DNA of 64,000 bases from Thermodesulfobacteriota bacterium (GCA_049320885.1 JBMORA010000035.1:46369-110368); one strand, 5' to 3'. Counted from the stretch's first letter, positions 13,867-30,427 are shown. The notes: generated by a model from the letters alone, not told the origin. Made by a program: numbers and translations.

Positions 13867-14820
13867 ATGATCGAAGCCTATATTGAAAAATTCAAAAAGC
13901 TGCGGACTGACAGGAATCGAAAAATCTGGACGGAGCGCACTTCTTACCGCGCGCCCCACAAACCTTTCCTGCTGCTCTCGATCATGGATCTCATCAACCA
14001 GGGAGACATCACCGCCAATTTCATTGAACCGACCTTCGACCTGGTGGAGATGTTCAATACCTACTGGTCGGCCGTCATGCCGCCCGCAGCCTCCACCAGT
14101 ATGGCCTATCCGTTTTATCATATGCGCAGCGAAGGCTTCTGGAAGCTCGTACCGGACATCGACACCCCGGTTTATTCCGTCAGTAAATTGCGTGAGCACT
14201 ACCAGGGTGCCATCATCGACGAGACCCTGTTCCTACTCTTACAGCAGTCCGCCAGCCAGCACCAGCTGCGCACAGCCCTGATCACCACCTATTTCGCCCC
14301 GGACCTGCAGCCATTAGTCTTCGAACAGGGCGTAGTAAGCTACCAGGCCCATGCCTATGGCCAGGAACTGCTGCGGATTGCCGAGTCGGCAGCCGGTTTT
14401 GAAAAGACTGTGCCGCCGGCCCTCCAGGAACCGAAAGTCCGCGACCAGGCCTTCCGCAAGGTGATCGTATCCCTGTACAACCACCGCTGTGCCCTCTGCG
14501 GCATCCGCATGCTCACCCCCGAAGGCCATACCGTGGTGGAAGCCGCCCACATCGTCCCTTGGCATAAAAGCCAGGATGATCGGCCCAGCAATGGGCTTTC
14601 TCTCTGCCGCCTCTGCCACTGGTCTTTTGACGAGGGCCTCATGAGCGTTGGTAAAGAGTACGAAGTCCTGGTTTCCAAACGCGTCACTCTGGAAAACAAT
14701 TTTCCAGGGCATATGTTGACTCTTTCGGACCGACGGATCTTCCGTCCCGATGATCAAAAATATTGGCCGGATCAGGAGAATTTAAATTGGCATCGTCAGA
14801 AATTTTATGAAAGGTTGTAA
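13867..14820 (+). CDS. HNH endonuclease with an SBD-like N-terminus (putative phosphorothioate-dependent type IV restriction enzyme)
   Basis: [10 protein letters not shown] and YPFYHM..EGFW N-terminal motifs; CALCG...EAAHI...[17 protein letters not shown] domain. Confidence 0.75.
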
Positions 14821-14875
14821 AAATCCGGATCAGACGCTATCAATTCACGAGTGTCCAAGAGGGTTTGTGGCCCAT

Positions 14876-17260
14876 ATGGATAAAAAAAAGCTGAGTGAAC
14901 GCGACATCTGCACCAAATTCATCACCCCGGCTCTGGAACGCGCGGGTTGGGATATCAGCACCCAGGTTCGGGAAGAATTTCCCCTTACCAACGGGCGTAT
15001 CATCGTGCGTGGCAAGCTGTATACCCGCGCCAAGCACAAGCGCGCCGATTATGTCCTGTTTTACAAGCCGAATATTCCCATTGCCATTATCGAAGCCAAG
15101 GACAACAACCACACGGTTGGCGATGGCATGCAACAGGCCCTGGGCTATGCTGACATGCTGCAAGTGCCGTTTGTATTCAGCTCCAACGGCGATGGCTTTT
15201 TGTTTCACAACAGAATTGCCGCAGATGGCGTTATCGAGCGTGAGCTCTCACTTAACGAATTTCCCTCTGTGGAAACATTATGGCAACTATGGGGGCAACA
15301 TCGCGGGCTGAACGACCAGCAGAATGCGTTGGTCACGCAGGATTATTATAGCGACGTAAGCGGCAAGAACCCGCGCTATTACCAGTTATTGGCCATTAAC
15401 AAAACCATTGAGGCAATCGCTCAGGGGAAAAATCGTATTCTTCTGGTGATGGCAACCGGCACCGGCAAAACCTTCACCGCCTTTCAAATCATCTGGCGTT
15501 TATGGAAGTCCAGGGCAAAAAAACGAATCCTGTTTCTTGCCGACCGCAACATTTTGATCGACCAGACCATGACCAATGATTTCAAACCATTCGGTTCGGC
15601 CATGACCAAGATCCAGAAGCGGCAGACCAATAAGTCCTACGAGATTTACCTTTCCCTCTATCAGGCTGTTACCGGAAATGAGGAAGAGAAAAACATTTAT
15701 AAGCAGTTCAGCCCCGATTTTTTCGATCTGATCATTATTGATGAATGCCATCGGGGCAGTGCGGCCGCCGATTCGGCCTGGCGTGAAATCCTCGAATATT
15801 TCACCTCCGCCACCCAGATCGGTCTTACCGCCACCCCCAAGGAGACCAAAGAAGTTTCCAATATCGATTACTTTGGCGACCCCATCTATACTTACAGTCT
15901 TCGGCAGGGAATCGACGACGGTTTCCTTGCCCCTTATAAGGTCGTGCGCATCGATTTCGACCGGGATTTGACCGGCTGGCGACCCGACAAGGGCATGATC
16001 GACAAGTACGGCAACGAAATCGAGGACCGCATTTACAACCAAAAGGATTTCGACAAGACCCTGGTCCTTGAACAGCGCACCCAGTTGGTGGCCAAAAAGA
16101 TCACCGAATTCCTCAGGCAGACCAACCGCTTCGACAAAGCCATCGTCTTTTGCGAAAACATCGACCATGCCGAGCGCATGCGCCAGGCCCTGGTCAATGA
16201 AAACGCCGACCTGGTGGCGCAAAACAGCAAATACGTCATGCGCATCACCGGCGACAACGAGGAAGGCAAAGCCGAGCTCGATAACTTCATTTTTCCGGAG
16301 AGTAAATACCCGGTTATTGCCACCACTTCCAAGCTGATGACCACCGGCGTGGATGCTCAGACCTGCAAACTCATCGTGCTCGACCAGCGCATTCAGTCCA
16401 TGACCGAATTCAAGCAGATCATCGGGCGCGGCACCCGCATCAATGAAGACTACGGCAAGTACTATTTCACCATCATTGACTTTAAAAAGGCCACCGAGTT
16501 GTTTGCCGACCCTGATTTCGACGGTGATCCGGTCCAGATCTACGAACCCAAGGGGGATGAATCACCGGTGCCGCCGGATATTCCCGGCGAGGCCGAAAGT
16601 GGCAGCGGCGTCACCTACCCGGAACCAGGAGGCGAGCAGGATTGGACCGGCGTCGCCGAACCCGGCCCAGAAGAGGAGGGCGACGGAACTCGCCGTTACG
16701 TCGTGGCCAATGTCGAGGTCAAGGTTGCCGCCGAGCGCGTCCAGTATTTCGACGCCAACGGTAAACTGATCACCGAATCCCTCAAGGACTACACCCGCAA
16801 GGCCCTGGCTAGGGAATACGCCTCCCTCGACGATTTCCTCCGCCGCTGGACCAGCACCGAAAAGAAGCAGGCCATCATCGACGAACTCTCCGAACAGGGG
16901 GTGTTCTTCGATGCCCTTGCCGATGAGATCGGGCGGCAATCCGGCAAAGCATTCGATCCGTTCGATCTGGTCTGCCATGTCGCTTGGGATATGCCGCCTC
17001 TTACCCGCAAGGAACGGGCGGAACAGGTGAAGAAACGTAACTACTTCACCCAATACGGCGAGCAGGCCCGTCGCGTGCTGGAAGCGCTGCTCGACAAGTA
17101 CGCCGATGAAGGCGTGGCCCCCATCGAAGAGACGCAGATTCTCACCATTGCCCCTTTTACCAAATTCGGCACCCCGCTGGAAATTATCCGCGCCTTTGGG
17201 GGGCTGGATCAGTATCAGCAGGCTGTGCATGAGCTGGAGGATGCGCTTTATGCCGGATAA
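14876..17260 (+). CDS. hsdR: Type I restriction enzyme R subunit (EcoAI/EcoEI-like)
   Basis: ADYVL..IIEAK nuclease motif; [18 protein letters not shown] and QIIGRGTR helicase motifs. Confidence 0.95.
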
Positions 17261-17714
17261 ACAAACCTCACACGAAGGCACGAAAACACGAAGGGATAAA
17301 GAAGGGTTATCCAAGATCGTTGTGGATTGTGCATACCGGATGCATGTTGAGATCGGGCCGGGGTTGCTCGAGTCTGTTTATGAGGCGGTACTGGAGAAAC
17401 TGCTATTGGAGAAAGGTCTCAGGGTAAATCGACAAAAGTCCATACCGATTGAGGTGATGGGTCTTTCCATCCATGAAGGATTCAGGGCTGATCTGATCGT
17501 GGAGGATCTTCTGCTGATTGAGCTTAAATCAGTAGAAAAACTCGCCCCGGTTCATTCCAAACAAGTCCTGACCTACCTTCGGCTTCTCAATCTGCCTCTC
17601 GGACTCCTCCTCAACTTCGGCGCAGCCACGTTCAAAGAAGGCTGCAAGCGCATCGTCAACGGCAAACAGGACTTCGTGTCTTCGTGCCTTCGTGTGAACC
17701 AAAAAGGATACTAA
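17250..17714 (+). CDS. GxxExxY protein (PD-(D/E)XK-like, PDDEXK_3 family)
   Basis: [33 protein letters not shown] and GLLLNFG motifs; start overlaps the hsdR stop. Confidence 0.9.
17268..17697. repeat. 26-bp inverted repeats enclosing the GxxExxY gene body
   Basis: TCACACGAAGGCACGAAAACACGAAG (17268-17293) versus CTTCGTGTCTTCGTGCCTTCGTGTGA (17672-17697), 25/26 complementary. Confidence 0.92.
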
Positions 17715-17716
17715 TC

Positions 17717-19183
17717 ATGTCACTGACCAACCTGATCAAAACCATTCAGGACATCATGCGCAAGGATGTCGGCGTCGATGGCGACGCTCAGCGCATCAGC
17801 CAGATGGTCTGGCTGATTTTCCTGAAGATCTTCGACGACAAGGAGCAGGAGTGGCAGCTCACCGTGCCCGGCTACAAATCGCCGCTGCCCAGCCGTTTCC
17901 GCTGGTCCAGCTGGGCCAAGAACCCCGAGGGGATGACCGGCGAGGAATTGATCGACTTCGTCAACAATGACCTCTTCCCGGCGCTTAAAAAACTGGCCAT
18001 CACAGCCGGCGTGTCGACCCATGGCAAGGTGGTCGGTTCGGTGTTCGAGGACGCCTACAACTATATGAAATCAGGTCATCTCCTGCGCCAGGTGATCAAC
18101 ACCATCGAAGCGGATGTGGACTTCAACAAATCCAGCGACCGGCACCTGTTCAACGACATCTACGAAAAGATTCTTTCTGACCTGCAATCGGCCGGTAACG
18201 CAGGTGAATACTACACCCCCCGCGCCGTCACCCGGTTCATGGTCGACATGCTCGATCCTCGACTCGGGCAAACCATTCTCGACCCGGCCTGCGGCACCGG
18301 CGGCTTTCTGACCTGCGCCATCGAGCACCTGAACAAGCAGGTCAAAACCGCCGAGGACCGCAAGCGCCTGCAGGGGTGTATCCACGGCGTGGAGAAGAAA
18401 CCCCTGCCGCACATGCTGGCCATGACCAACATGATGCTGCACGGCATCGATGTGCCCACCAACGTCCACCACGACAACACCCTGAGCCGACCGCTGAAGG
18501 ATTACGGCCCCCGCGACCGGGTTGACCTGATCATCACCAACCCGCCCTTTGGCGGCATGGAAGAGGATGGAATCGAGAATAACTTCCCGCGCAAGTACCA
18601 GACCCGCGAGACCGCCGACCTCTTCATGGCGCTGATCATGCACCGCTTGAAGCACGATACCGGCAAGGCCGCCGTGGTTCTGCCCGACGGCTTTCTGTTC
18701 GGCGAGGGAACCAAAACCAATCTGAAGCGCGAATTGTTGGAGGAATTCAATCTGCACACCATCGTGCGCCTCCCCAAAGGCGTGTTCAGCCCCTATACCA
18801 GTATCGCCACCAACATCCTCTTTTTCGAAAAAGGCGATCCGACCAAGGAGGTCTGGTTCTTCGAGCACCCGTATCCTGAGGGCTACAAATCCTACTCCCG
18901 CTCCAAGCCCCTGACCATCGCCGAGTTCGATCTCGAAAAAGCCTGGTGGGGCGGAGCCGGGCGCAAGGGCCGCAAGACCACCGAACAGGCCTGGAAGGTT
19001 TCGGCCAAGGAACTGGCTGAACGCAACTACAACCTGGACTGCAAGAACCCGCACCAGGTGGAGGTCAACCACCGCGATCCGGAAGAGTTGATGGCCGAAT
19101 ACCGGCAGATCGTCCACCAGCTCGAAGCGGCGCAGGCAGCCTTGAAAGCCGAGTTGACGGCCTGCCTGGGGGGCAAGTCATGA
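17717..19183 (+). CDS. hsdM: Type I RM N6-adenine methyltransferase
   Basis: GEYYTPR, DPACGTGGFL and TNPPFG motifs. Confidence 0.95.
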   Translation: MSLTNLIKTIQDIMRKDVGVDGDAQRISQMVWLIFLKIFDDKEQEWQLTVPGYKSPLPSRFRWSSWAKNPEGMTGEELIDFVNNDLFPALKKLAITAGVSTHGKVVGSVFEDAYNYMKSGHLLRQVINTIEADVDFNKSSDRHLFNDIYEKILSDLQSAGNAGEYYTPRAVTRFMVDMLDPRLGQTILDPACGTGGFLTCAIEHLNKQVKTAEDRKRLQGCIHGVEKKPLPHMLAMTNMMLHGIDVPTNVHHDNTLSRPLKDYGPRDRVDLIITNPPFGGMEEDGIENNFPRKYQTRETADLFMALIMHRLKHDTGKAAVVLPDGFLFGEGTKTNLKRELLEEFNLHTIVRLPKGVFSPYTSIATNILFFEKGDPTKEVWFFEHPYPEGYKSYSRSKPLTIAEFDLEKAWWGGAGRKGRKTTEQAWKVSAKELAERNYNLDCKNPHQVEVNHRDPEELMAEYRQIVHQLEAAQAALKAELTACLGGKS

Positions 19184-20340
19184 GCGACGTGCAGTTGACA
19201 ACTCCGGAATACCGCGACTGGCTGAAGGAGATCAAGCAGCGATTGCGGCAGGCGCAGGTGAAGGCGGCGGTGCAGGTGAATACCGCCTTGCTGACCTTCT
19301 ACTGGGAGCTGGGCGCGGACATTGTGGAGCGCCAGAAATCGGCTCTATGGGGCAGCGGATTTCTGAAACAGTTGAGCGCCGACCTGATGGCGGAGTTTCC
19401 GGACATGAAGGGGTTTTCGCGGCGGAACCTTGAACAGATTCGCCGCTGGTATCTGTTTTATGCCGAAGGGATTACAAATTGCGCAACAAGCTGTGGCACA
19501 ATTGGGCAGCAAGCTGTTGTCCAATTACCGGAAAAGAGGGGAGAATCAATTGCGAAGCAGCCTGCTGCGCAATTGGCCGACAGTTCAGTTCCGTCACACC
19601 TCGTGGCCAAATTGGTTCAGATTCCCTGGTGGCATAATGTGGTGATTATCTCCAAATGCAAGGATGTGACCGAAGCGATTTACTATGTAAACAAGACCAT
19701 CGATCATAACTGGAGCCGGAATGTCCTGACCCACCAGATTGAGAGCGGTTTGTATGTGCGCGAGGGAAAGGCGGTCACCAATTTTGCACAGACCTTACCG
19801 GCTCCACAGTCGGATTTGGCGCAACAGTTGATGAAAGATCCCTACAATTTTGATTTTTTAACGCTGACCAAAGACTACAACGAACGGGAGCTTGAAAAGG
19901 CGCTGACTGACCATATCACCAAATTTCTTTTAGAGCTGGGTGCCGGTTTCGCCTATGTGGGACGCCAAAAAGAGTTGCAGGTGGGTGAGCGGGATTTCTT
20001 CCTCGATTTGCTATTTTACCACACCAAACTTCATTGCTATGTCGTCATTGAGCTCAAGACCGGCGAGTTTGAACCGGAGTATGCCGGTAAACTTAATTTT
20101 TATCTGAAGGCGGTGGATGAGCAGCTGCGCGGGGATCGGGATGAGCCGACCATTGGCATTCTGCTCTGCAAAACCCGAGATCGCGTCGTGGTGGAGTATG
20201 CGCTGAGTGACATTAGCAAACCCATGGGCGTTTCGGAATACCAGCTTACCCGCGCCCTGCCGGATAACCTGAAATCGAGCCTGCCCTCCATTGAGGAACT
20301 GGAAGCGGAGTTCGGCAACCCGGAGGGAGATGATGAATAA
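19180..20340 (+). CDS. Second DUF1016/YhcG-family nuclease, inside the hsd operon
   Basis: FYWELG, KDPYNFDFL and DLLFYH..LHCYVVIELK motifs; ATGA overlap with hsdM. Confidence 0.9.
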   Translation: MSDVQLTTPEYRDWLKEIKQRLRQAQVKAAVQVNTALLTFYWELGADIVERQKSALWGSGFLKQLSADLMAEFPDMKGFSRRNLEQIRRWYLFYAEGITNCATSCGTIGQQAVVQLPEKRGESIAKQPAAQLADSSVPSHLVAKLVQIPWWHNVVIISKCKDVTEAIYYVNKTIDHNWSRNVLTHQIESGLYVREGKAVTNFAQTLPAPQSDLAQQLMKDPYNFDFLTLTKDYNERELEKALTDHITKFLLELGAGFAYVGRQKELQVGERDFFLDLLFYHTKLHCYVVIELKTGEFEPEYAGKLNFYLKAVDEQLRGDRDEPTIGILLCKTRDRVVVEYALSDISKPMGVSEYQLTRALPDNLKSSLPSIEELEAEFGNPEGDDE

Positions 20341-20350
20341 CGGGATGGTC

Positions 20351-20527
20351 TCACACGAAGGCACGAAGACACGAAGTTTTGAAAACAGTCGTTATACCCG
20401 CGAAGGCGGGTACCCAGATTCGTGGCAACGATTTATCCAACGGCTTGCTGCACTATTTCCAATTATTCAGACCGGGAGGGGGGTATGACCAGTTCGTCCT
20501 CCTTCGTGCCTTCGTGTCTTCGTGTGA
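20351..20527. repeat. Gene-less copy of the CACGAAG inverted-repeat element, with a nested REP-like hairpin
   Basis: Arms at 20351-20376 and 20502-20527; internal TACCCGC-GAAG-GCGGGTA at about 20395-20412. Confidence 0.9.
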
Positions 20528-22527
20528 GCGATCTGCTGGAACAGCATTTCGACACCGCCTTTGCCGCGCCTGCCGGTATCGCCAAACTGCGCGAGTTGAT
20601 CTTGACCCTCGCCATGCAGGGCAAGCTGGTGGAACAGGACCCGAACGACCCACCCGCCAGCGAGTTGCTGAAGGAGATCGAAGCCGAAAAACAGCAGCTT
20701 GTGAAAGCGGGCAAGATTAAAAAGCCCAAGCCGCTGCCGCCCATTAAGCCGGAGGAAGTGCCCTACGAACTGCCGGAGGGATGGGAGTGGGCGAGGCTCG
20801 GTGAAATAACTGAATACAACGGTCGAAAAAATATCTCGGGCGATGAGATAGCCCCCGATACATGGTTGCTTGATCTCGAAGACATTGAAAAGGGAACTTC
20901 TCGTATTCTGTTCCGAGCAAAGTTTTCAGAGCGCCAATCAAAATCTACGAAATCAACCTTTCAGAAAGGTGATGTGCTTTATGGCAAACTTCGTCCCTAT
21001 CTCGACAAGGTTGTGGTAGCAGATGCTGATGGAGTTTGCACGACTGAGATTGTGCCCATCGTTCCGTTTAACGGAATACATTCTGAATTTCTCAGGTGGT
21101 TACTAAAGCGCCCTGCATTTATAACCCATGTTAACTCTCTCATGTATGGCGTCAAAATGCCCAGGCTTGGCACAGATGATGCTTTAACGAGTATTCACCC
21201 GCTTCCCCCCCTCCCCGAACAACACCGCATCGTCGCCCGCATCAACCAGTTGATGACCCGTTGTGATGAGTTGGAAAAGCTGCACAAACAGCGGGAGGAG
21301 AAGCGGCTGGCCGTCCACGCCGCCGCCATCAAGCAACTGCTCGACCCGCCGGACCTGTCTGCCGGCCAGGCAGGCGGCTCGGCCTGGGACTTTATCCAAC
21401 AGCACTTCGACGACCTCTACACCGTCAAGGAAAACGTCGCCGAACTGCGCAAGGCCATCCTCCAACTCGCCGTAATGGGCCGCCTCGTTCCCCCTGCCTG
21501 CCGGCAGGCAGGCAAGACCCCAACGACCCTCCCACCACCAGAACCTGGATCATGGTGGGTGTACGTTATTGAGTGCGAAAATGGATCATTCTATAAAGGT
21601 TTTACAGAAGATCTTCCGCGTCGCTGGCGGCAACATCTATCAGGTACTGCGAGCGAATGGACAAAAAAGCATCCACCCAAACAGGTTTACTACTGGGAAA
21701 AATGTTTTTCAAAAGAAGCAGCCATTAAGCGGGAAGACTATTTGAAATCAGGCTTTGGTCGAGAATGGTTCAAGCGCGAGGTGGTTGATAATCAAAAAGC
21801 ATGGCAGACCGCCAGCGAACTGCTCAAAGAGATCGAAGCCGAAAAACAGCGACTGATGAAGGCAGGTAAAATCAAGAAGCCCAAGCCCGTACCGCCCATC
21901 AAGCCGGAGGAAGTGCCCTACCAACTGCCGCAGGGCTGGGAGTGGGTGCGATTTGGAAAAGTTGCGAGCAACCGACTAGGAAAAATGCTCGATAAATCTA
22001 AGAATCGAGGTAACCCAAAACCATATTTGAGAAATACCAATGTTCAATGGCATCAGTTTGTTCTTGATGATGTCAAAGAGATGAAATTCGAAGATGAAGA
22101 GCTTGATGAATTTCGTGTACTTCCCGGTGACCTTCTAATATGCGAAGGTGGTGAACCCGGTCGCTGTGCAATATGGCGCGATTCAGAGGTAGAAATCTAT
22201 TTCCAGAAAGCCATACATAGAGCGAGGCCGTTTTCGTGCGTTACTTCTGAGTATCTGCAAGTTTGCCTTACAAACGATGGGGGTAACGGTCAGTTGGAAA
22301 AGTATTTCACTGGGGCAACAATCAAGCATTTCCCTGGTGACAAGCTTAATGGGTATGTCATTCCTCTACCACCTCTTCCCGAACAACACCGCATCGTCGC
22401 CCGCATCGATCAGTTGATGGCCCTGTGCGACACACTCGACCAGCAGATCGACGCTGCCACCGGCAAAAAGACCGAACTGCTGGACGCCGTGATGGCCCGC
22501 CTGTCGGCAGACACGGCCCAGGTATAA
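20485..22527 (+). CDS. hsdS: Type I RM specificity subunit with an in-frame GIY-YIG nuclease domain between the two TRDs
   Basis: Duplicated ASELLKEIEAEK...PEEVPY.LP.GWEW and PLPPLPEQHRIVARI conserved regions; two lower-GC TRDs; insert WWVYVIEC..SFYKGFT...REDYLKSGFGREW. Confidence 0.92.
   Translation: MTSSSSFVPSCLRVSDLLEQHFDTAFAAPAGIAKLRELILTLAMQGKLVEQDPNDPPASELLKEIEAEKQQLVKAGKIKKPKPLPPIKPEEVPYELPEGWEWARLGEITEYNGRKNISGDEIAPDTWLLDLEDIEKGTSRILFRAKFSERQSKSTKSTFQKGDVLYGKLRPYLDKVVVADADGVCTTEIVPIVPFNGIHSEFLRWLLKRPAFITHVNSLMYGVKMPRLGTDDALTSIHPLPPLPEQHRIVARINQLMTRCDELEKLHKQREEKRLAVHAAAIKQLLDPPDLSAGQAGGSAWDFIQQHFDDLYTVKENVAELRKAILQLAVMGRLVPPACRQAGKTPTTLPPPEPGSWWVYVIECENGSFYKGFTEDLPRRWRQHLSGTASEWTKKHPPKQVYYWEKCFSKEAAIKREDYLKSGFGREWFKREVVDNQKAWQTASELLKEIEAEKQRLMKAGKIKKPKPVPPIKPEEVPYQLPQGWEWVRFGKVASNRLGKMLDKSKNRGNPKPYLRNTNVQWHQFVLDDVKEMKFEDEELDEFRVLPGDLLICEGGEPGRCAIWRDSEVEIYFQKAIHRARPFSCVTSEYLQVCLTNDGGNGQLEKYFTGATIKHFPGDKLNGYVIPLPPLPEQHRIVARIDQLMALCDTLDQQIDAATGKKTELLDAVMARLSADTAQV
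21354..21374. repeat. 21-nt intragenic palindrome CCTGTCTGCCGGCCAGGCAGG
   Basis: In frame in hsdS (LSAGQAG); removal gives P-D-G-S-A-W. Confidence 0.8.
21493..21512. repeat. 20-nt perfect palindrome CCTGCCTGCCGGCAGGCAGG
   Basis: Removal restores RLVP-QDPNDPP, matching KLVE-QDPNDPP in the first HsdS repeat. Confidence 0.9.
21534..21810 (+). other. 277-nt insert encoding a GIY-YIG (YhbQ/SLX1-like) nuclease domain
   Basis: Sits between GACCCTCCC and GCCAGCGAA, whose equivalents are contiguous in the first HsdS repeat; VYVI...FYKG, R..QH and E..LK residues. Confidence 0.85.
22496..22516. repeat. 21-nt degenerate palindrome CCCGCCTGTCGGCAGACACGG
   Basis: In frame at the hsdS C-terminus; removal gives AVMAQV*. 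Confidence 0.7.
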
Positions 22528-22536
22528 GGAGATGCC

Positions 22537-22653
22537 ATGCGCCTGACATCACTTTATATCGGCCAGTACAAGAACCTTCGGGATTTTTCTCTGAGGTTCG
22601 ACCTGCCGGCCGGGCAGGCGGGCGGCAGCAACTTTATCGATGTCTTTGTCGGC
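22537..22653 (+). pseudogene. N-terminal remnant of an AAA/ABC-type ATPase following hsdS
   Basis: MRLTSLYIGQYKNLRDF...IDVFVG, truncated at the expected Walker A and fused to a NERD-gene fragment; AGGAG RBS. Confidence 0.7.
22602..22622. repeat. 21-nt palindrome CCTGCCGGCCGGGCAGGCGGG
   Basis: In frame in the ATPase remnant (LPAGQAG); removal gives F-D-G-S. Confidence 0.78.
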
Positions 22654-22897
22654 AATACCGTCGGCCTGATGTGGTTTAATGAGAGCGGACACTGAGTCAA
22701 GCGTGGTTTTTTAATCGGCTTAGAAACATAGACAAAACAGAAGGTTTTTGTTATCTGGCACGGCAACTAGCCGGAAAGGTTATTTGCGAGAATGGGCTAT
22801 AGGTGCTCGTCGGAGCAAATAAACTTTCCGGCGGGTCCCAGGATTCGGCTTGGATAGCGGATATGTTTCGGGAGCTATTACGCAGACGAGGTGTTCA

Positions 22898-23200
22898 ATG
22901 GGTGAAAAGAAGCAGCGAAAAGATTACACGGATGAATTTAAACTGGATGCCGTCAAGCTAGTTATCGAACAAGGGTACTCCACCCCTGAGGTTGGCCGGC
23001 GGCTGGGGATCAATCATACCAACGTCTCAAGATGGGTTCGGGAATATCATGCAAAGATAGGTGTCCCTTCCAAAAGTTCAGGTGCTGTCCAGGAACTGGA
23101 GGAGGAGGTAAAACGCCTCAGAAAAGAAAACAAACGCCTTTTGATGGAGCGAGAAATCTTAAAAAAGGCGGCGGCCTTCTTTGCGAACGAATCGAACTGA
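22898..23200 (+). CDS. IS3 transposase OrfA
   Basis: YTDEFKLDAV HTH; EREILKKAAAFF. Confidence 0.9.
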   Translation: MGEKKQRKDYTDEFKLDAVKLVIEQGYSTPEVGRRLGINHTNVSRWVREYHAKIGVPSKSSGAVQELEEEVKRLRKENKRLLMEREILKKAAAFFANESN

Positions 23201-24068
23201 GGTTCGATTTTATCCGGCAGCAAATGAAGGCCTATCCCGTAACCGTCTTATGTTCGGTGATGCGGGTTAGCCGGGGTGGGTTCTATGGCTATCTGAAACG
23301 ATTCAATGCTGGGAAGAATCGTCCAGAAGAGACCGAATTGGGGAAGCGAATCAAAGAAATATTCAACGATCACAAAAACTGCTACGGATCCCGACGGATC
23401 GCAAGGCAATTAAGGGATGAAGGCCAGCCGGTGGGCCGATATAAAGTGCGACGGATCATGCGCCAGTTGTGGGGCTGAAGGCAAAAACTCCCAAGCGGTT
23501 CAAGCTGACGACCGACAGCCGACATTCGTTCCCGGTGGCGCCCAATACCCTGAATCGGAAATTCACGGTTGATGCTCCGAACAAGGTCTGGACGGCGGAT
23601 ATCACCTATGTATGGACCTTTGAAGGTTGGTTATACCTGGCGGTTGTCATGGACCTGTATTCCCGCCGGATTGTCGGGTGGGCCATGAGTGAAAGAATGC
23701 AGAAGCAGCTTGTGCTGGATGCCCTGGCCATGGCGTATTGGCAGCGGAAGCCCTCAAAGGGTCTTTTGCATCATTCGGATCGCGGAAGTCAGTATGCCTG
23801 CCATGAATACAGGAAGCGGCTTAAAGGCTATGGCATGGAGGCCAGCATGAGCAGAAAGGGAAACTGCTGGGATAATTCACCAATGGAACGCTTTTTCCGC
23901 TCCTTGAAATCAGAACGGTTGACCGCTTGCCGTTTTGTGTCACGGAATGAAGCAAAAATGGAAATACTGGACTATATTACATTCTATAACAGCATTCGGC
24001 TTCATTCGACATTGGGGTACGTATCTCCGATGGCTTATGAGAAAAAACAGTACTTAAAGGTGGCTTGA
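23197..24068 (+). pseudogene. IS3 transposase OrfB, broken by an extra frameshift at about 23470
   Basis: YGSRRI...RIMRQL|GLKAK split across two frames. Confidence 0.82.
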
Positions 24069-24101
24069 TTTTGTGTCCGTTTTTCCTTGACCATTACAGC
24101 C

Positions 24102-24253: not shown

Positions 24254-24392
24254 CACAATCACAAACCGAATCAGAGTCAGACTTACCCGCAATGCTCGGG
24301 TCCGTGGAATTATGGAGGCCGTGACGAATGCATGATACGACCAAGCCATTGATGGTTAGCGAGGATAGTGTTTCATATGGGGGGGAAAAGCC

Positions 24393-24980
24393 ATGATGAC
24401 CCTTCGGCTTTTCTCCGGGAAATTTGAATCCGTGCCGGCCGCCACATCCTGGTACTTGGCAGACCTTGGCGAGGCGCGTGGCAAACAGGAATTGTTTACC
24501 CGTCAATCGCCGCAGCGTCTCAAGGCTTTGCGGGAGCACGCCCTCATTGAAAGCGCCGTATCATCCAACCGGATCGAGGGCGTGGAGGTCGAGCAATCCC
24601 GAATCGCCACCATCGTCTTCGGCCAGCCGCTTCTGCGGGACCGTGATGAGGAGGAAGTCCGGGGATACCGGCAGGCCCTGACCTGGATTCATGAGCAAGG
24701 GGCGAAAATCCCGATATCGGAAGAGACCGTTTTACAGCTCCATCATATGACACGCGGGGAAATCTGGGATGCCGGAAAATACAAAAATAAAGACGGCGAC
24801 ATTATCGAAAAGTTTCCGGATGGCAGGTCGCGGGTCCGCTTCAAAACCGTTCCGGCGAAAGACACGCCGAGTTTCATGAAGGATCTGGTCGAGTTGTACG
24901 ACGATGCCATCGAGGATCGCAAAGTCCCGCCGCTTGTCCTTTTAGCCGCCCTCAACCTCGATTGGGGCGGCAAGTGTTGA
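24393..24980 (+). pseudogene. Fic-family protein, N-terminal part, truncated before the catalytic motif
   Basis: SSNRIEG, EVRGYRQAL and LQLH motifs; ends AALNLD with no HPFxDGNGR. Confidence 0.75.
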
Positions 24981-25127: not shown

Positions 25128-25616
25128 ATGGCCCAAATGATTCCGCCTGATGTTGAGACCTTCACAACCGATGGCGAAAGGCAGTTCTACCGATTTTTGG
25201 AAGCGGTCGCCAAGCCGGATTCGAATTTTATCGCCTGGTATACGCCGAACATTGACGGGAAGGAGCCGGATTTCGTTCTTTTCGGCAATACTGTCGGCCT
25301 GGTTGTTTTTGAAGTGAAGGACTGGGGGCTTGAGCAGATCGTCGCGGCTGATAAGCATCAGTTCCGGCTCATTATGGGGGGCGTGACCGAGAACCGAAAA
25401 AATCCTTACCGGCAGGCCCGGGAATATTTTTACCAGCTGATGAACCGCATCGAGCAGGACGGGCGGCTGGTATCGCAGGAGCCGGGACATCATGGCAAGC
25501 TCCGGATACCGATCACCTGCGGCGTCATCTTTCCCAACATCAATAAATACGAGTATTCCCAAAAAGGCTTGGACATAAAAATTGCCCATTATTCACTATT
25601 CGAATCAGGAGAATAG
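25128..25616 (+). pseudogene. Truncated duplicate of the NERD-helicase N-terminus
   Basis: Near-identical to 30809-31256, then diverges and stops. Confidence 0.85.
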
Positions 25617-27104
25617 ATGATGGATCGCTTTGATCTTCTCAGTTTTGATGAAGGGAAAACCCTGGAATTCAAGCGGGACCTCTCGTCACCCAAAGCATTC
25701 TTGAAGACACTGGTGGCTTTTGCTAACACGGCGGGCGGTAAAATCATCATCGGCGTGGAGGACAAGACGCGCCGGCCTGTTGGTGTGCAGCATCCCCTGG
25801 ATGAAGAGGAAAAATTGTGTAATCTGATCGCCGATTCCATTAGTCCACGCCTGGTGCCCAATGTGGAAATGGTAACGGTGGACAACAAGACCCTCCTGAT
25901 CGCCGAAGTCTTCTTAAGCAATTCACGGCCCCATTGGCTCAAAGCGGAAGGACCGGAAAACGGCGTCTATGTCCGACTCGGTTCCACCAACCGCCAGGCG
26001 GACCGGGAACTCATCGCGGAGTTGCGTCGGTCGGTGGAAGGGGTTGCTTTTGATGAAATGCCGTTGCCGGAAATGTCCGTTGACGATCTGGATTTGGCCG
26101 CCGCCCGGAAAGTATTCCAGGGGCGCCGCAAACTGGATAAGCAAGAATTGCTGACACTGAAATTGCTGCGTAAAGACCAGGGGAAACTAGTCCCGACCAA
26201 GGGCGCTGTGCTTTTATTCGGAAAAGAGCGCGTTTTCCATTTCCCGGATTCCTGGGTGTAGTGCGGCCGCTTTATCGGCCGGGACAAAACTGATATCTTC
26301 GATCATATTGATTTGGACGAGCCCTTGCCGCAACTGGTGGAGAGCATCCTGTTGTTTCTGAAAAAGCATGCCATGCGCGGTGCCGATTTCTCCGAAATTC
26401 GGCGGAAGGATGTCTGGAGTATCCCCCTCGGGATTCTGCGGGAGGCGGTGATCAATGCCCTGGTGCATGCTGACTATTCCCAGCGCGGCGCTCCGATCCG
26501 CATCGCCTTTTACGATGACCGCATTGAAATCGAAAACCCGGGGATCCTGATGCCGGGCATGACCATCGAGGATATGAAGCAGGGGGTCTCCAAGATCCGC
26601 AATCCGGTGATCGCCAGGGTTTTCCGAGAACTGAAACTCATTGAACAATGGGGCAGCGGCGTGCGCAATATCCTCCGGGTCGCCCAGGAACAAAACCTGC
26701 CGGAGCCCATTTACGAAGAAATCGGCATGCGGCTTCGTTTGAGCGTGTTCCTTGCAGAACCGCAGGTTCTTTCCAAAATTCAGGCCGGGTCCAGGTCCAT
26801 AACTGTCCAAAAGAGTCTTGAGGAAACCAAGGGGGGGGTGCCAAATCAAGAGCAGTGGGCTAAACGGTGGGGTGAAAAGTGGGGTAAAAAGTGGGGTGAA
26901 ACCATGATGGCCAAGCGGCTTACGATTGCTCGCGCCATGCAGCGCAATCCGCGCATTTCAACCTCGGAGCTGGCCGCACACTTGGATATGGGAACTACTG
27001 GTGTGGAGAAGCATTTAAAAATATTGCGTGAAAATGGATGTATCCGACGGATCGGTCCAGCCAAGGGCGGTCGCTGGGAAGTGTTGGAAGACGGGGATGA
27101 ATAA
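25617..27104 (+). pseudogene. AlbA_2 (Schlafen-like) + HATPase_c_4 + HTH protein interrupted by an in-frame TAG at 26259-26261
   Basis: EGKTLEFK, AFANTAGG, REAVINALVHADY and RIEIENPG motifs; both ORFs are in the same frame (WV*CGRF). Confidence 0.85.
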
Positions 27105-27492: not shown

Positions 27493-27962
27493 AGACTTAC
27501 CCGCAATGCTCGGGTCCGTGGAATTATGGAGGCCGTGACGAATGCACGATACGAACAAGCCATTGATGGTTAGCGAGGATAGTGTTTCATATGGGGGGGG
27601 AAAGCCATGATGACCCTTCGGCTTTTCTCCGGGAAATTTGAATCCGTGCCGGCCGCCACATCCTGGTACTTGGCAGACCTTGGCGAGGCGCGTGGCAAAC
27701 AGGAATTGTTTACCCGTCAATCGCCGAAGCGTCTCAAGGCTTTGCGGGAGCACGCCCTCATTGAAAGCGCCGTATCATCCAACCGGATCGAGGGCGTGGA
27801 GGTCGAGCAATCCCGAATCGCCACCATCGTCTTCGGCCAGCCGCTTCTGCGGGACCGTGATGAGGAGGAAGTCCGGGGATACCGGCAGGCCCTGACCTGG
27901 ATTCATGAGCAAGGGGCGAAAATCCCGATATCGGAAGAGACCGTTTTACAGCTCCATCATAT
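27493..27962 (+). repeat. 470-bp direct duplicate of 24279-24748 (Fic upstream region and 5' half)
   Basis: Near-identical by direct comparison. Confidence 0.92.
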
Positions 27963-28752: not shown

Positions 28753-29535
28753 ATGCCATCCCGAACCGAAAAAAAACTGGAACAAAGCCTGCCCGAAGGG
28801 CAAGTGGTGAACCGCGCCTGGCTCAAGGCGCGTGGATTCAACCGGCCCAGGGTGGATTATGCCTTGCGGGCCGGCAAACTGGAAGCCATAGCCCACGGGG
28901 TATACCGAAGGCCAGGACCGCCACTCAAGTGGGAGCATGTGGTCTATTCGCTGAACGAGATGGGCTGCCCGGTGCATGTGGGTGGCCGCAGTGCTTTGGA
29001 ATTGCAGGGGATGGCCCATTACCTGCCGCTGGGTGGCACGCAGCGCATCGACCTTTACGGCACCGCCAAGGTGCCCGGCTGGGCATGCGATTTGTCGGCC
29101 CCGTACACATTCGTGGTCCATTCCCGGCGTTTTTTCAAGAAGCTCCCGGAGGCGGCGCTGTACAACCGGCCGTTCGGTTCCTGGGACTGGCCCATTCCGT
29201 ACAGCACTCCGGAGCTGGCCCTGCTGGAGCTTTTAGCCGGTGTCCGGGAGGCGACGGATTTTTCCATGGCCGATAAATTTTTTGAAAGTGCTGCCAATTT
29301 GCGGCCGGAATTGCTCGATGACTTGCTGGGTTCCTGCACCCAGGTGAAAGCCAAACGCCTTTTCCTGTGGTTCAGCGATCGTCACGGCCATGCCTGGCGT
29401 CAACGGCTCGAAACCAGAGATATTGAACTGGGCCGGGGCAAGCGCATGCTGGTCAAGAGTGGGGCGTATGACGCAGTCTATCAGATAACCGTTCCCAAGG
29501 ACATGGCCGGTGGAAGTGAACAGTCCCTATATTGA
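28753..29535 (+). CDS. abiEi: Type IV TA / AbiE antitoxin (AbiEi_3-like)
   Basis: HVGGRSALELQG.AHYL, STPELALLE and QVKAKRLFL motifs; overlaps the downstream nucleotidyltransferase. Confidence 0.85.
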   Translation: MPSRTEKKLEQSLPEGQVVNRAWLKARGFNRPRVDYALRAGKLEAIAHGVYRRPGPPLKWEHVVYSLNEMGCPVHVGGRSALELQGMAHYLPLGGTQRIDLYGTAKVPGWACDLSAPYTFVVHSRRFFKKLPEAALYNRPFGSWDWPIPYSTPELALLELLAGVREATDFSMADKFFESAANLRPELLDDLLGSCTQVKAKRLFLWFSDRHGHAWRQRLETRDIELGRGKRMLVKSGAYDAVYQITVPKDMAGGSEQSLY

Positions 29536-30427
29536 ACAGGTCCGTCTGTTGATCAAGCTGATGCCCAGTGTGGCCAGGCAACCCTGTTTTGCCTTAAAAG
29601 GCGGGACGGCCATCAATCTGTTTCTGAGAGACACGCCACGGCTATCGGTGGATATCGACCTGGCTTATCTACCAATAGCGGATCGCGAGAGCAGCCTGGC
29701 GGGAATCGATGCGGCACTCGGAGCAATAGCGGAAGATATAGAAAGATATATACCGCGTACCCAGGTCAAGTCGTCTACCCTGAAAGGCACAGGCATGCGC
29801 TTCAAGCTATTGGTCATGCAAGCGGAAGCAAGTGTCAAGATAGAAGTGACGCCAGTGTTGCGGGGCACTGTCTATCCGGTTGAAAGCCGCCGGCTAGCGG
29901 AAAGAACGGAAAAGGCTTTTGGTTTTGCCGAAATGCAACTGCTCAGTTTTGAGGATATCTACGCCGGGAAAATCTGTGCGGCTCTGGACAGGCAACATCC
30001 GCGGGATCTGTATGATGTGCATTGGCTGTTGCAGAATGAGGGAATTGGTGAGCGATTGAAGAACGCCTTCCTGGTGTACTTGATGGGCCATAATCGGCCT
30101 ATGGCAGAGCTGTTGGCGCCCCAGCCACAAGATATTACATCACTTTACCGGGCTGAATTTACGGGATTGGCTTACGAACCGCTGGAACTTGAAAGATTGC
30201 AGGAGACCCTGCCGAATTTGGTTGCCCTCCTTCATAGGGTTTTGAGCGATGATGACAAGCAGTTCCTGCTGGCGCTCAAACAGGGAACGCAGGATTGGCA
30301 AAAATTCCCATTGCCGGAAGTGGAACGGCTGCCGGCCATCCAATGGAAGATCCAGAATTTAGCGCGCATGAACCCCAGCAAACGTCGTCAGGCAATAACG
30401 AAGCTGGGAAATATCTTGTTCGGGTAG
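29510..30427 (+). CDS. abiEii: AbiEii/AbiGii nucleotidyltransferase toxin
   Basis: LKGGTAINLF, RLSVDIDL and KICAALDRQHPRDLYD motifs. Confidence 0.9.
   Translation: MEVNSPYIEQVRLLIKLMPSVARQPCFALKGGTAINLFLRDTPRLSVDIDLAYLPIADRESSLAGIDAALGAIAEDIERYIPRTQVKSSTLKGTGMRFKLLVMQAEASVKIEVTPVLRGTVYPVESRRLAERTEKAFGFAEMQLLSFEDIYAGKICAALDRQHPRDLYDVHWLLQNEGIGERLKNAFLVYLMGHNRPMAELLAPQPQDITSLYRAEFTGLAYEPLELERLQETLPNLVALLHRVLSDDDKQFLLALKQGTQDWQKFPLPEVERLPAIQWKIQNLARMNPSKRRQAITKLGNILFG

Follow-up and report, generated by a model that had tools for sequence, protein, structure and literature searches.

Does a short palindrome that recurs inside genes belong to the small nuclease encoded beside it? The question is raised by a type I hsd operon of a Thermodesulfobacteriota bacterium (GCA_049320885.1, JBMORA010000035.1:46369-110368; the whole 64,000-nucleotide (nt) stretch is referred to below as the window), in which hsdS, the gene for the specificity subunit, contains three hairpin-forming palindromes together with a GIY-YIG nuclease domain, and the following ATPase gene contains a fourth palindrome (sites 1 to 4; Table 1). 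We propose that the palindromes and the nuclease are probably one family of selfish DNA, driven by the nuclease and consisting of a mobile cassette that encodes this nuclease only and of a derivative reduced to the cassette ends. The proposal draws on ends shared by the two forms, precise insertion, filtering by reading frame, an intact active site and a local excess of copies, all as they appear from sequence comparison.

The palindromes and their empty sites

The four palindromic strings described in the initial annotation are present exactly where it placed them, and they are indeed related, although only the one at 21493-21512 is a perfect palindrome, the other three being imperfect 21-nt hairpins (predicted energies of -4.0 to -6.2 kcal/mol, vs. 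-8.0 for the 20-mer). All four lie within open reading frames, as had been claimed, the fourth, however, in a truncated ATPase stub rather than in an intact gene. The 5.61-Mb host genome contains 88 matches to the 20-mer with at most 4 edits, so that 0.02 would be expected in the 1,269-bp span in which four are seen. An assembly artefact is ruled out because contigs of run X1, which might be the source sample itself, cover every insert without a single differing letter and because the unit recurs in 30 database proteins.

The empty states, which for three of the four sites had been deduced rather than seen, are confirmed by the comparison with HsdS and ATPase homologs. At site 1, 92 of 122 HsdS sequences could be read by pattern (30 remained unread); a short PDGSAW-like spacer is found in 76 of these, seven additional residues in 13 (the window and 12 others) and other lengths in three. 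For site 2, 182 repeat matches from 118 HsdS proteins without the nuclease have the 8-residue PQDPNDPP-like spacer. The HsdS C-terminus, the location of site 3, is mostly AVMAQV-like among homologs, and site 4 is empty in all 85 ATPase homologs (83 by pattern and two by eye). The insertions are precise, with no target duplication at the palindromes, again as originally reported. This comparison indicates that the four palindromes are true insertions. The notion that the inserted peptides are ancestral is rejected for all four sites by the empty homologs; related, diverged inserts do occur at sites 1 and 3.

The GIY-YIG cassette

The insert in hsdS matches PF01541 with 58 bits (cut-off 22.6; E = 1e-15) and contains the Tyr, Tyr, Gly, Arg, His and Glu residues that we take to be catalytic and that are expected of the GIY-YIG superfamily. 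The domain had been placed at 21534-21810; it is present, but its ends are at about 21527-21803, and it is a domain inside HsdS rather than a free gene. Its GC content is 45%, vs. about 60% in the conserved parts of hsdS. The host protein itself is a type I specificity subunit, with PF01420 matched in two stretches, that is, two target-recognition domains joined by conserved helices. In the AlphaFold model (built with an alignment; mean pLDDT 88.8), for which Foldseek retrieves type I S subunits as top matches (7vru, 1yf2, 3okg), each of the two recognition domains folds separately, as does the nuclease (residues 344-421), and the palindrome peptides lie in lower-confidence linkers.

An intact relative of this insert is found in the same hsdS spacer of another genome (G056), where a 282-nt unit starts and ends with the palindrome arms and its removal restores QDPDDEPAS. 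The nine cassettes whose DNA was measured all have a length of 279 or 282 nt, with palindrome arms and no duplication, and are preceded by GA in six cases and followed by C in eight, the same GA^C junction as at sites 1 and 4; two more loci with altered ends (L357 and L304) gave no match in this measurement. The full cassette has short terminal inverted repeats (CCTGCCTGC...GGCAGGCAGG), reads LPAP...RQAG and lacks both start and stop codons, so that it can be expressed only as an internal domain of a gene that it has entered in frame. The only domain detected within it is PF01541; no DDE, HUH, serine or tyrosine recombinase was found there.

The 20-mer consists of the right-terminal 10 nt of the cassette followed by their reverse complement, which makes it an ends-only derivative; variants of it with 21 nt survive in genes. 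At site 2, the 20-nt copy shifts the frame and the 277-nt cassette offsets the shift (20 + 277 = 297 nt), so that hsdS remains open.

Distribution of the cassette

Among the relatives of the nuclease domain, of which the best 150 of 5,945 representatives were examined, 70 have both arm peptides, and in 111 the domain is located more than 40 amino acids from both protein ends. In a Pfam scan of 124 of these 150 proteins, picked by length and appearance, HsdS accounts for 84 of the first 96 hosts, a share biased by the query; the other hosts include HsdR, HsdM, DUF1156, NOV_C, SNF2, trigger factor, QueC, MsrB, NUDIX and TfoX proteins as well as an alkyltransferase, a hexose dehydratase and an AddB-like nuclease. 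The cassette occupies several positions within HsdS, and six Pfam domains are split in two by cassettes. In a FastTree phylogeny of a short alignment (85 columns), the window domain belongs to a clade with support 99 that is nested in the cassette clade (support 99); L144, which we presume to be Ssn-like, falls outside the latter.

The occurrence is patchy, with the cassette present in 8 of 401 genomes of the order and in 3 of 401 in the phylum of genome G655, one of these three having free-standing copies. Searches of plasmids and of viral contigs yielded no cassette, a metagenome scan produced 13 distant relatives, none with palindromes, and the 25 loci obtained in a gapped-arm search of viral contigs, mostly chance matches, include none with a GIY-YIG domain.

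Three proteins (P0250, P0238 and P0257) contain two matching stretches each, P0250 being a case in which a single hsdS site holds two cassettes arranged head to tail. Free-standing genes of related types were also observed: one of another sub-clade (L362, G655:C297) is apparently inserted in an integrase gene and has CCCCGT...ACGGGG repeats at its bounds, and the host genome has another GIY-YIG gene, which is free-standing and of the LKS.SGR type (L257, G000:C53:55456-55689) and which no palindrome adjoins.

The palindrome in other genomes

The exact 23-nt pattern was found in at least 121 stretches, with record titles that name Bacteroidota, Patescibacteria, Omnitrophota, Planctomycetia, Nitrospirae, Elusimicrobia and others; in the host's phylum, the palindrome is present in 23 of 251 genomes, with 0 for the reversed-pattern controls. 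The host genome has one exact 20-mer, that is, no REP-like family, and the complete 2.5-Mb genome G096 has about 90 near-exact copies along with a tRNA-linked GIY-YIG gene. At 51 of the 54 sites of palindromes, flanking direct repeats measure 0-1 nt, and tRNA copies that carry the palindrome are exactly 20 nt longer than the intact tRNA copies.

The predicted bias toward lengths divisible by three in coding sequences is borne out: frame-shifting 20-mers are depleted from long frames (0/24 vs. 214/489 random positions in G096; 7/73 vs. 431/830 in a further count), and three of seven 21-mers are located in Pfam-matching frames. In GC-rich viral loci, the frame test separates the lengths poorly (18/25 vs. 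22/39). A few 20-mers persist in genes, dnaG being one example, and these are presumably accompanied by an adjacent 1-nt change. Open housekeeping genes that contain palindromes are those for dnaG (L118:2501), a tRNA-editing domain (L189:398), UDP-GlcNAc 2-epimerase (L344) and a radical SAM protein (L346).

The tie between the palindrome and the GIY-YIG nuclease is even closer than had been postulated, the palindrome being identical with the ends of the cassette itself. Most copies elsewhere have no GIY-YIG domain beside them. Local clustering is supported: of 15 cassette loci, counting the window, five have an additional copy no more than 1.5 kb away, in genomes that contain very few copies. 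In genome G276, the sole copy, a perfect 20-mer, is found 43 nt after the nuclease and inside a NOV_C domain; this locus (L304, G276:C112:80431-80720), a GIY-YIG insert with different ends in a 1251-codon frame that is open through nuclease and 20-mer, mirrors the arrangement in the window. The only 21-mer of G1025 is located about 690 nt from the nuclease, and in G150 the nearby copy is one of five. At tRNA-linked GIY-YIG genes, the palindrome lies 10-22 nt before the start codon, within a duplicated 5' part of the tRNA. Such free genes, located between the palindrome-interrupted duplicate and the intact tRNA, were seen at L111, L129, L106, L289 and L292, and at L367 (G1088:C1:24971-25528) GIY-YIG copies are repeated in tandem every 315 nt, with a tRNA-like fragment that contains the palindrome ahead of each copy.

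Could each palindrome be the scar of a former full cassette, with the interior deleted between the arms by replication slippage and only the full cassette being mobile? Arms and palindromes are alike in sequence, GA^C junctions and reading phase, and intermediates of 26-30 nt exist (L291, L154). Nevertheless, we consider this origin improbable: the plain joining of two arms gives 19 nt rather than 20, and the abundance in G096, the nesting of copies in other repeats and the tandem copies fit independent mobility of the short form better.

The HsdS lineage of the window

The lineage to which the window HsdS belongs was defined solely by a C-terminal motif and comprises 20 distinct sequences, which are not independent of each other, with two more left unparsed; Rubritalea tangerina and a Bacteroidales bacterium are among those that bear a name. 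The nuclease sits at the first, middle or last HsdS repeat, with core identity from 59% (median 70%). The palindrome peptide [PH][AV][CG]RQAG is kept in all 20, the alternation of A and V corresponding to the C/T variant of the family itself, and the following seven residues occur in 15 forms. Additional palindrome peptides at varied positions are found in 10 of the 20, as opposed to none of the 118 nuclease-free HsdS and, with the same pattern, 1 of 60 hosts of intact cassettes. The Y, Y, G, R, H and E residues are each kept in 41-42 of the 42 domains preceded by PACRQAG. Other ways of balancing the frame are seen in P0006, whose first repeat has PACRQAG-KTPT and no nuclease, and in P0013, where PACRQAG is followed by unshifted QDPN. 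This locus adds to the cassette family an eroded, frame-compensated lineage, a conserved upstream palindrome and an excess of nearby copies.

The persistence of the catalytic residues in spite of the eroded arms could also reflect domestication, that is, retention of the HsdS-GIY-YIG fusion for an extra nicking or cutting activity of the type I enzyme, with the palindromes as neutral relics. The separate folding of the nuclease in the model and the preponderance of HsdS among the hosts, inflated as it is by the query, agree with this scenario. We find it very improbable, given that the domain is also present in metabolic and chaperone proteins, that the cassette is so patchily distributed, that the invariance of the palindrome peptide is left unexplained, and that a GIY-YIG insert in HsdR was judged probably unimportant for protein function in the accessible text of its description (Dunin-Horkawicz, Feder and Bujnicki 2006, PMC1564403).

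A possible route of spread

We infer that the nuclease mobilises both forms. The cassette would have entered the conserved QDPND^EPAS spacer of hsdS, at junctions that are directly visible, the 20-mer would then have landed 14 nt upstream of it, and a 1-nt change at the left end of the cassette would have balanced the frame, with the arms eroding afterwards; the junctions aside, this order of events is conjectural. Restriction and methylation both depend on HsdS, which makes it plausible that hsdS passed through a transient frameshift. The GIY-YIG domain might, in analogy to SsnA, bind the hairpin on single-stranded DNA and nick beside it; host repair enzymes might then join a fragment with a hairpin end into DNA that has a nick or gap, with precision, without duplication, and more often near the nuclease's own gene, and selection would retain only the frame-preserving copies in loops.

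The most specific form of this hypothesis, which we consider quite possible without rating it as probable, is a class of mobile DNA that has no transposase, in which an 80-residue GIY-YIG domain that is translated only as part of host proteins mobilises both its own cassette and a hairpin of 20-21 nt. The nuclease of the window lineage would have lost its own ends, keep the upstream palindrome as its substrate and seed new palindromes in its own gene and in neighbouring ones, writing 7-residue peptides into the encoded proteins.

Several observations weigh against a driving role of the nuclease. A GIY-YIG domain is present in the flanks of only 1 of 71 viral palindrome loci and 6 of at least 121 genomic ones (41 of the latter with 300-nt flanks); an additional copy within 1.5 kb is lacking at 10 of the 14 cassette loci outside the window, and four of the five cassette-bearing genomes tested contain no 20-mer. 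Co-occurrence across genomes is weak (6/22 vs. 21/228; p = 0.02, with a cut-off set post hoc and kinship uncorrected), and the high-copy genomes G174 and G234 lack a top-scoring nuclease. The 12 other HsdS proteins with a site-1 insert are free of the nuclease and carry diverged 7-residue peptides (RSAQKAG, QSAHKAG, PSAHLSG, KSADSAA or LSVAQTG), so that the loop seems either to take inserts repeatedly or to retain an old one; a tree of HsdS, for which 63 of the 122 sequences were usable, neither supports nor refutes a single origin of these inserts. Six HsdS proteins have a similar C-terminal extension, which, like the 12 site-1 inserts, is missed by the peptide pattern, and a contig of run X3 carries a site-1 variant together with an empty site 2. 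Synonymous sites indicate conservation of the palindrome for the window DNA only, as searches for DNA of other members of the window type returned none. Finally, we know of no bacterial GIY-YIG enzyme that joins DNA.

An alternative is mobilisation in trans, in which another enzyme, such as a free tRNA-linked GIY-YIG protein or an HUH transposase, inserted the palindromes while the hsd operon resided in a palindrome-rich host; the nuclease in HsdS would be a passenger and the cluster the history of a tolerant island. The contrast between the single exact copy in the present host and G096, with its many copies and tRNA-linked gene, is compatible with this idea, as are the distance of most palindromes from any GIY-YIG gene, the GxxExxY repeats and NTS-like hairpin in the same operon, and the unrelated inserts at site 1 of other HsdS. 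It is nevertheless rather unlikely in our view: undegraded palindrome peptides are found in 10 of 20 members of the window lineage and in none of the 118 close nuclease-free HsdS, one HsdM with a cassette has two relatives whose additional copies occupy different sites, each site being empty in the other relative, and the arms belong to the cassette itself. Mobilisation by the cassette's own nuclease remains the reading that we favour.

Genomic context of the hsd operon

The operon includes a second small nuclease cassette, of the GxxExxY type (Table 1).

Table 1. Inserts in hsdS and the ATPase gene, and features of the surrounding operon (positions in the window)
Feature	Position	Strand	Remarks
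Site 1, 21-nt palindrome variant	21354..21374	+	in frame; adds LSAGQAG; GA^C junction; loop accepts other inserts too
Site 2, perfect 20-nt palindrome	21493..21512	+	reads PACRQAG; frameshift offset by 277-nt cassette 14 nt downstream
Site 3, 21-nt palindrome variant	22496..22516	+	in frame; adds RLSADTA three codons ahead of hsdS stop
Site 4, 21-nt palindrome variant	22602..22622	+	in frame in ATPase stub; adds LPAGQAG; GA^C junction; third codon positions differ from family
Eroded GIY-YIG cassette, 277 nt	about 21527-21803	+	arms decayed, catalytic residues intact; ends approximate, from alignment with intact relative
hsdS, type I specificity subunit (680 aa, P0004)	20485..22527	+	frame unbroken; holds three palindromes and the GIY-YIG cassette
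hsdR, EcoAI-like	14807-17260	+	same type I operon
GxxExxY (PD-(D/E)XK) gene between 27-nt inverted repeats	17268..17698	+	second small nuclease cassette in operon, unrelated to GIY-YIG
hsdM	about 17717-19183	+	same type I operon
GxxExxY-type inverted repeats without GxxExxY gene	20350..20528	.	before hsdS; enclose NTS-like hairpin; context
AAA_15-type ATPase gene stub (52 codons)	22537..22695	+	homology stops near 22655, at Walker A motif
IS3-type element	22667..24098	+	follows ATPase stub; family from ORF layout and ends; ends approximate

The GxxExxY gene and the empty repeat pair resemble a parallel system of full and empty forms with a PD-(D/E)XK enzyme, and peptides of the GxxExxY repeats (LRAFAPSRE, LRAFVPSCE) occupy site 1 in other HsdS (P0096, P0141, L011). 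The NTS-like hairpin (20390-20417) deviates by at most 2 mismatches from a relaxed NTS pattern and fails the SRM pattern; the genome has two others, both on contig C13. The rest of the ATPase gene is absent elsewhere in the assembly. The surroundings of the operon (13867-14820, 19180-20340, 25128-27104 and 28753-30427) encode HNH, YhcG/DUF1016 and NERD proteins, a pair that we take to be AbiE-like and a split AlbA_2/ATPase. The start of a Fic-like gene fragment (MMTLRLFSGKFES...) is duplicated at 24358-24539 and 27572-27753, with both copies apparently truncated, in keeping with decay of a defence island.

Implications

If the hypothesis is correct, few coding mobile units are smaller than the cassette and few non-autonomous ones smaller than the 20-mer, and the family points to a type of mobile DNA, little known so far, through which bacterial proteins gain peptides. 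The family would account for the stray peptides (PACRQAG, LPAGKAG, LSADRQ) and the apparent HsdS-GIY-YIG fusions that recur in annotations, and at this locus two selfish inserts would cancel each other's frameshift. With one 92-residue domain, one 20-nt substrate and known empty sites, it offers a direct test of how hairpin repeats spread, and it may provide a single-stranded DNA nuclease with a specificity unlike that of Ssn. We found no description of the cassette or its 20-mer in a literature search that mostly did not cover subscription journals, and the supplements of PMC11893778 could list such proteins.

Comparison with known systems

[quoted passage not shown] It is not new in kind because the Ssn/NTS system already combines small GIY-YIG nucleases with short hairpin repeats (Chenal et al. 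2025, PMC11893778). According to the accessible text of that paper, the GIY-YIG protein SsnA (catalytic residues Y6/Y17/E64) binds a single-stranded DNA hairpin and cuts a few nucleotides upstream, the NTS-ssnA-NTS arrangement is likened to an insertion sequence and to REP systems, and its mobility is a hypothesis only. Ssn are free single-domain proteins (cd10448), with repeats that flank the gene and are rarely intragenic (2% in Neisseria meningitidis), as far as that text goes. Here, in contrast, the cassette lies within host genes, lacks a start and has the arms as its first and its last codons, and the window domain is internal to a 680-residue HsdS. The SRM motif has 0 matches in flanks of 500 nt and 5 kb around the window cassette or in the 500-nt flanks of nine others, in a search that had no positive control. 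The nearest solved relatives by sequence, the UPF0213 proteins BH0048 (PDB 1zg2, E = 4e-10) and EF2693 (1ywl, E = 5e-8), are free-standing and outside the cassette architecture.

The GIY-YIG insert in the HsdR protein MCA0838 was described as a unique insertion (Dunin-Horkawicz, Feder and Bujnicki 2006, PMC1564403), and the accessible text is silent on DNA ends, on palindromes and on any spread.

REP/REPIN sequences with RAYT, and TIRtrons, likewise combine short palindromes, some of them intragenic, with an enzyme gene bounded by related repeats, in the part of the account that is accessible; the RAYT enzyme is an HUH tyrosine transposase, and the word GIY does not occur in the main text (Di Nocera et al. 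2013, PMC3733652). The partner here is a GIY-YIG domain, the genomes not having been searched for HUH enzymes, and the window palindrome, unlike REP, has no GTAG or CGTC tag. High-copy, mostly extragenic repeats, a REP trait, are absent from the host, with its one exact copy, and present in G096, where none of the 24 copies examined is in a long frame.

[quoted passage not shown] The units described here are 20-21 nt long, cause no duplication and have a partner that is only a nuclease. Inverted repeats common to the full and the short form are shared with insertion sequences and MITEs; target-site duplication and a known transposase are not.

Inteins and homing endonuclease genes also place a nuclease in frame at conserved sites of host genes, an intein consisting of a splicing domain with an N-terminal Cys or Ser and a C-terminal His-Asn. 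The cassette differs in that it lacks a splicing domain and splicing residues at its termini, occupies many unrelated sites and ends in inverted repeats. An intein was considered and rejected: the cassette, from LPAP to RQAG, is filled by the GIY-YIG domain. Overall, the family works like Ssn/NTS or RAYT/REP and, judged by free protein, SRM flanks and HUH enzyme, is a member of neither.

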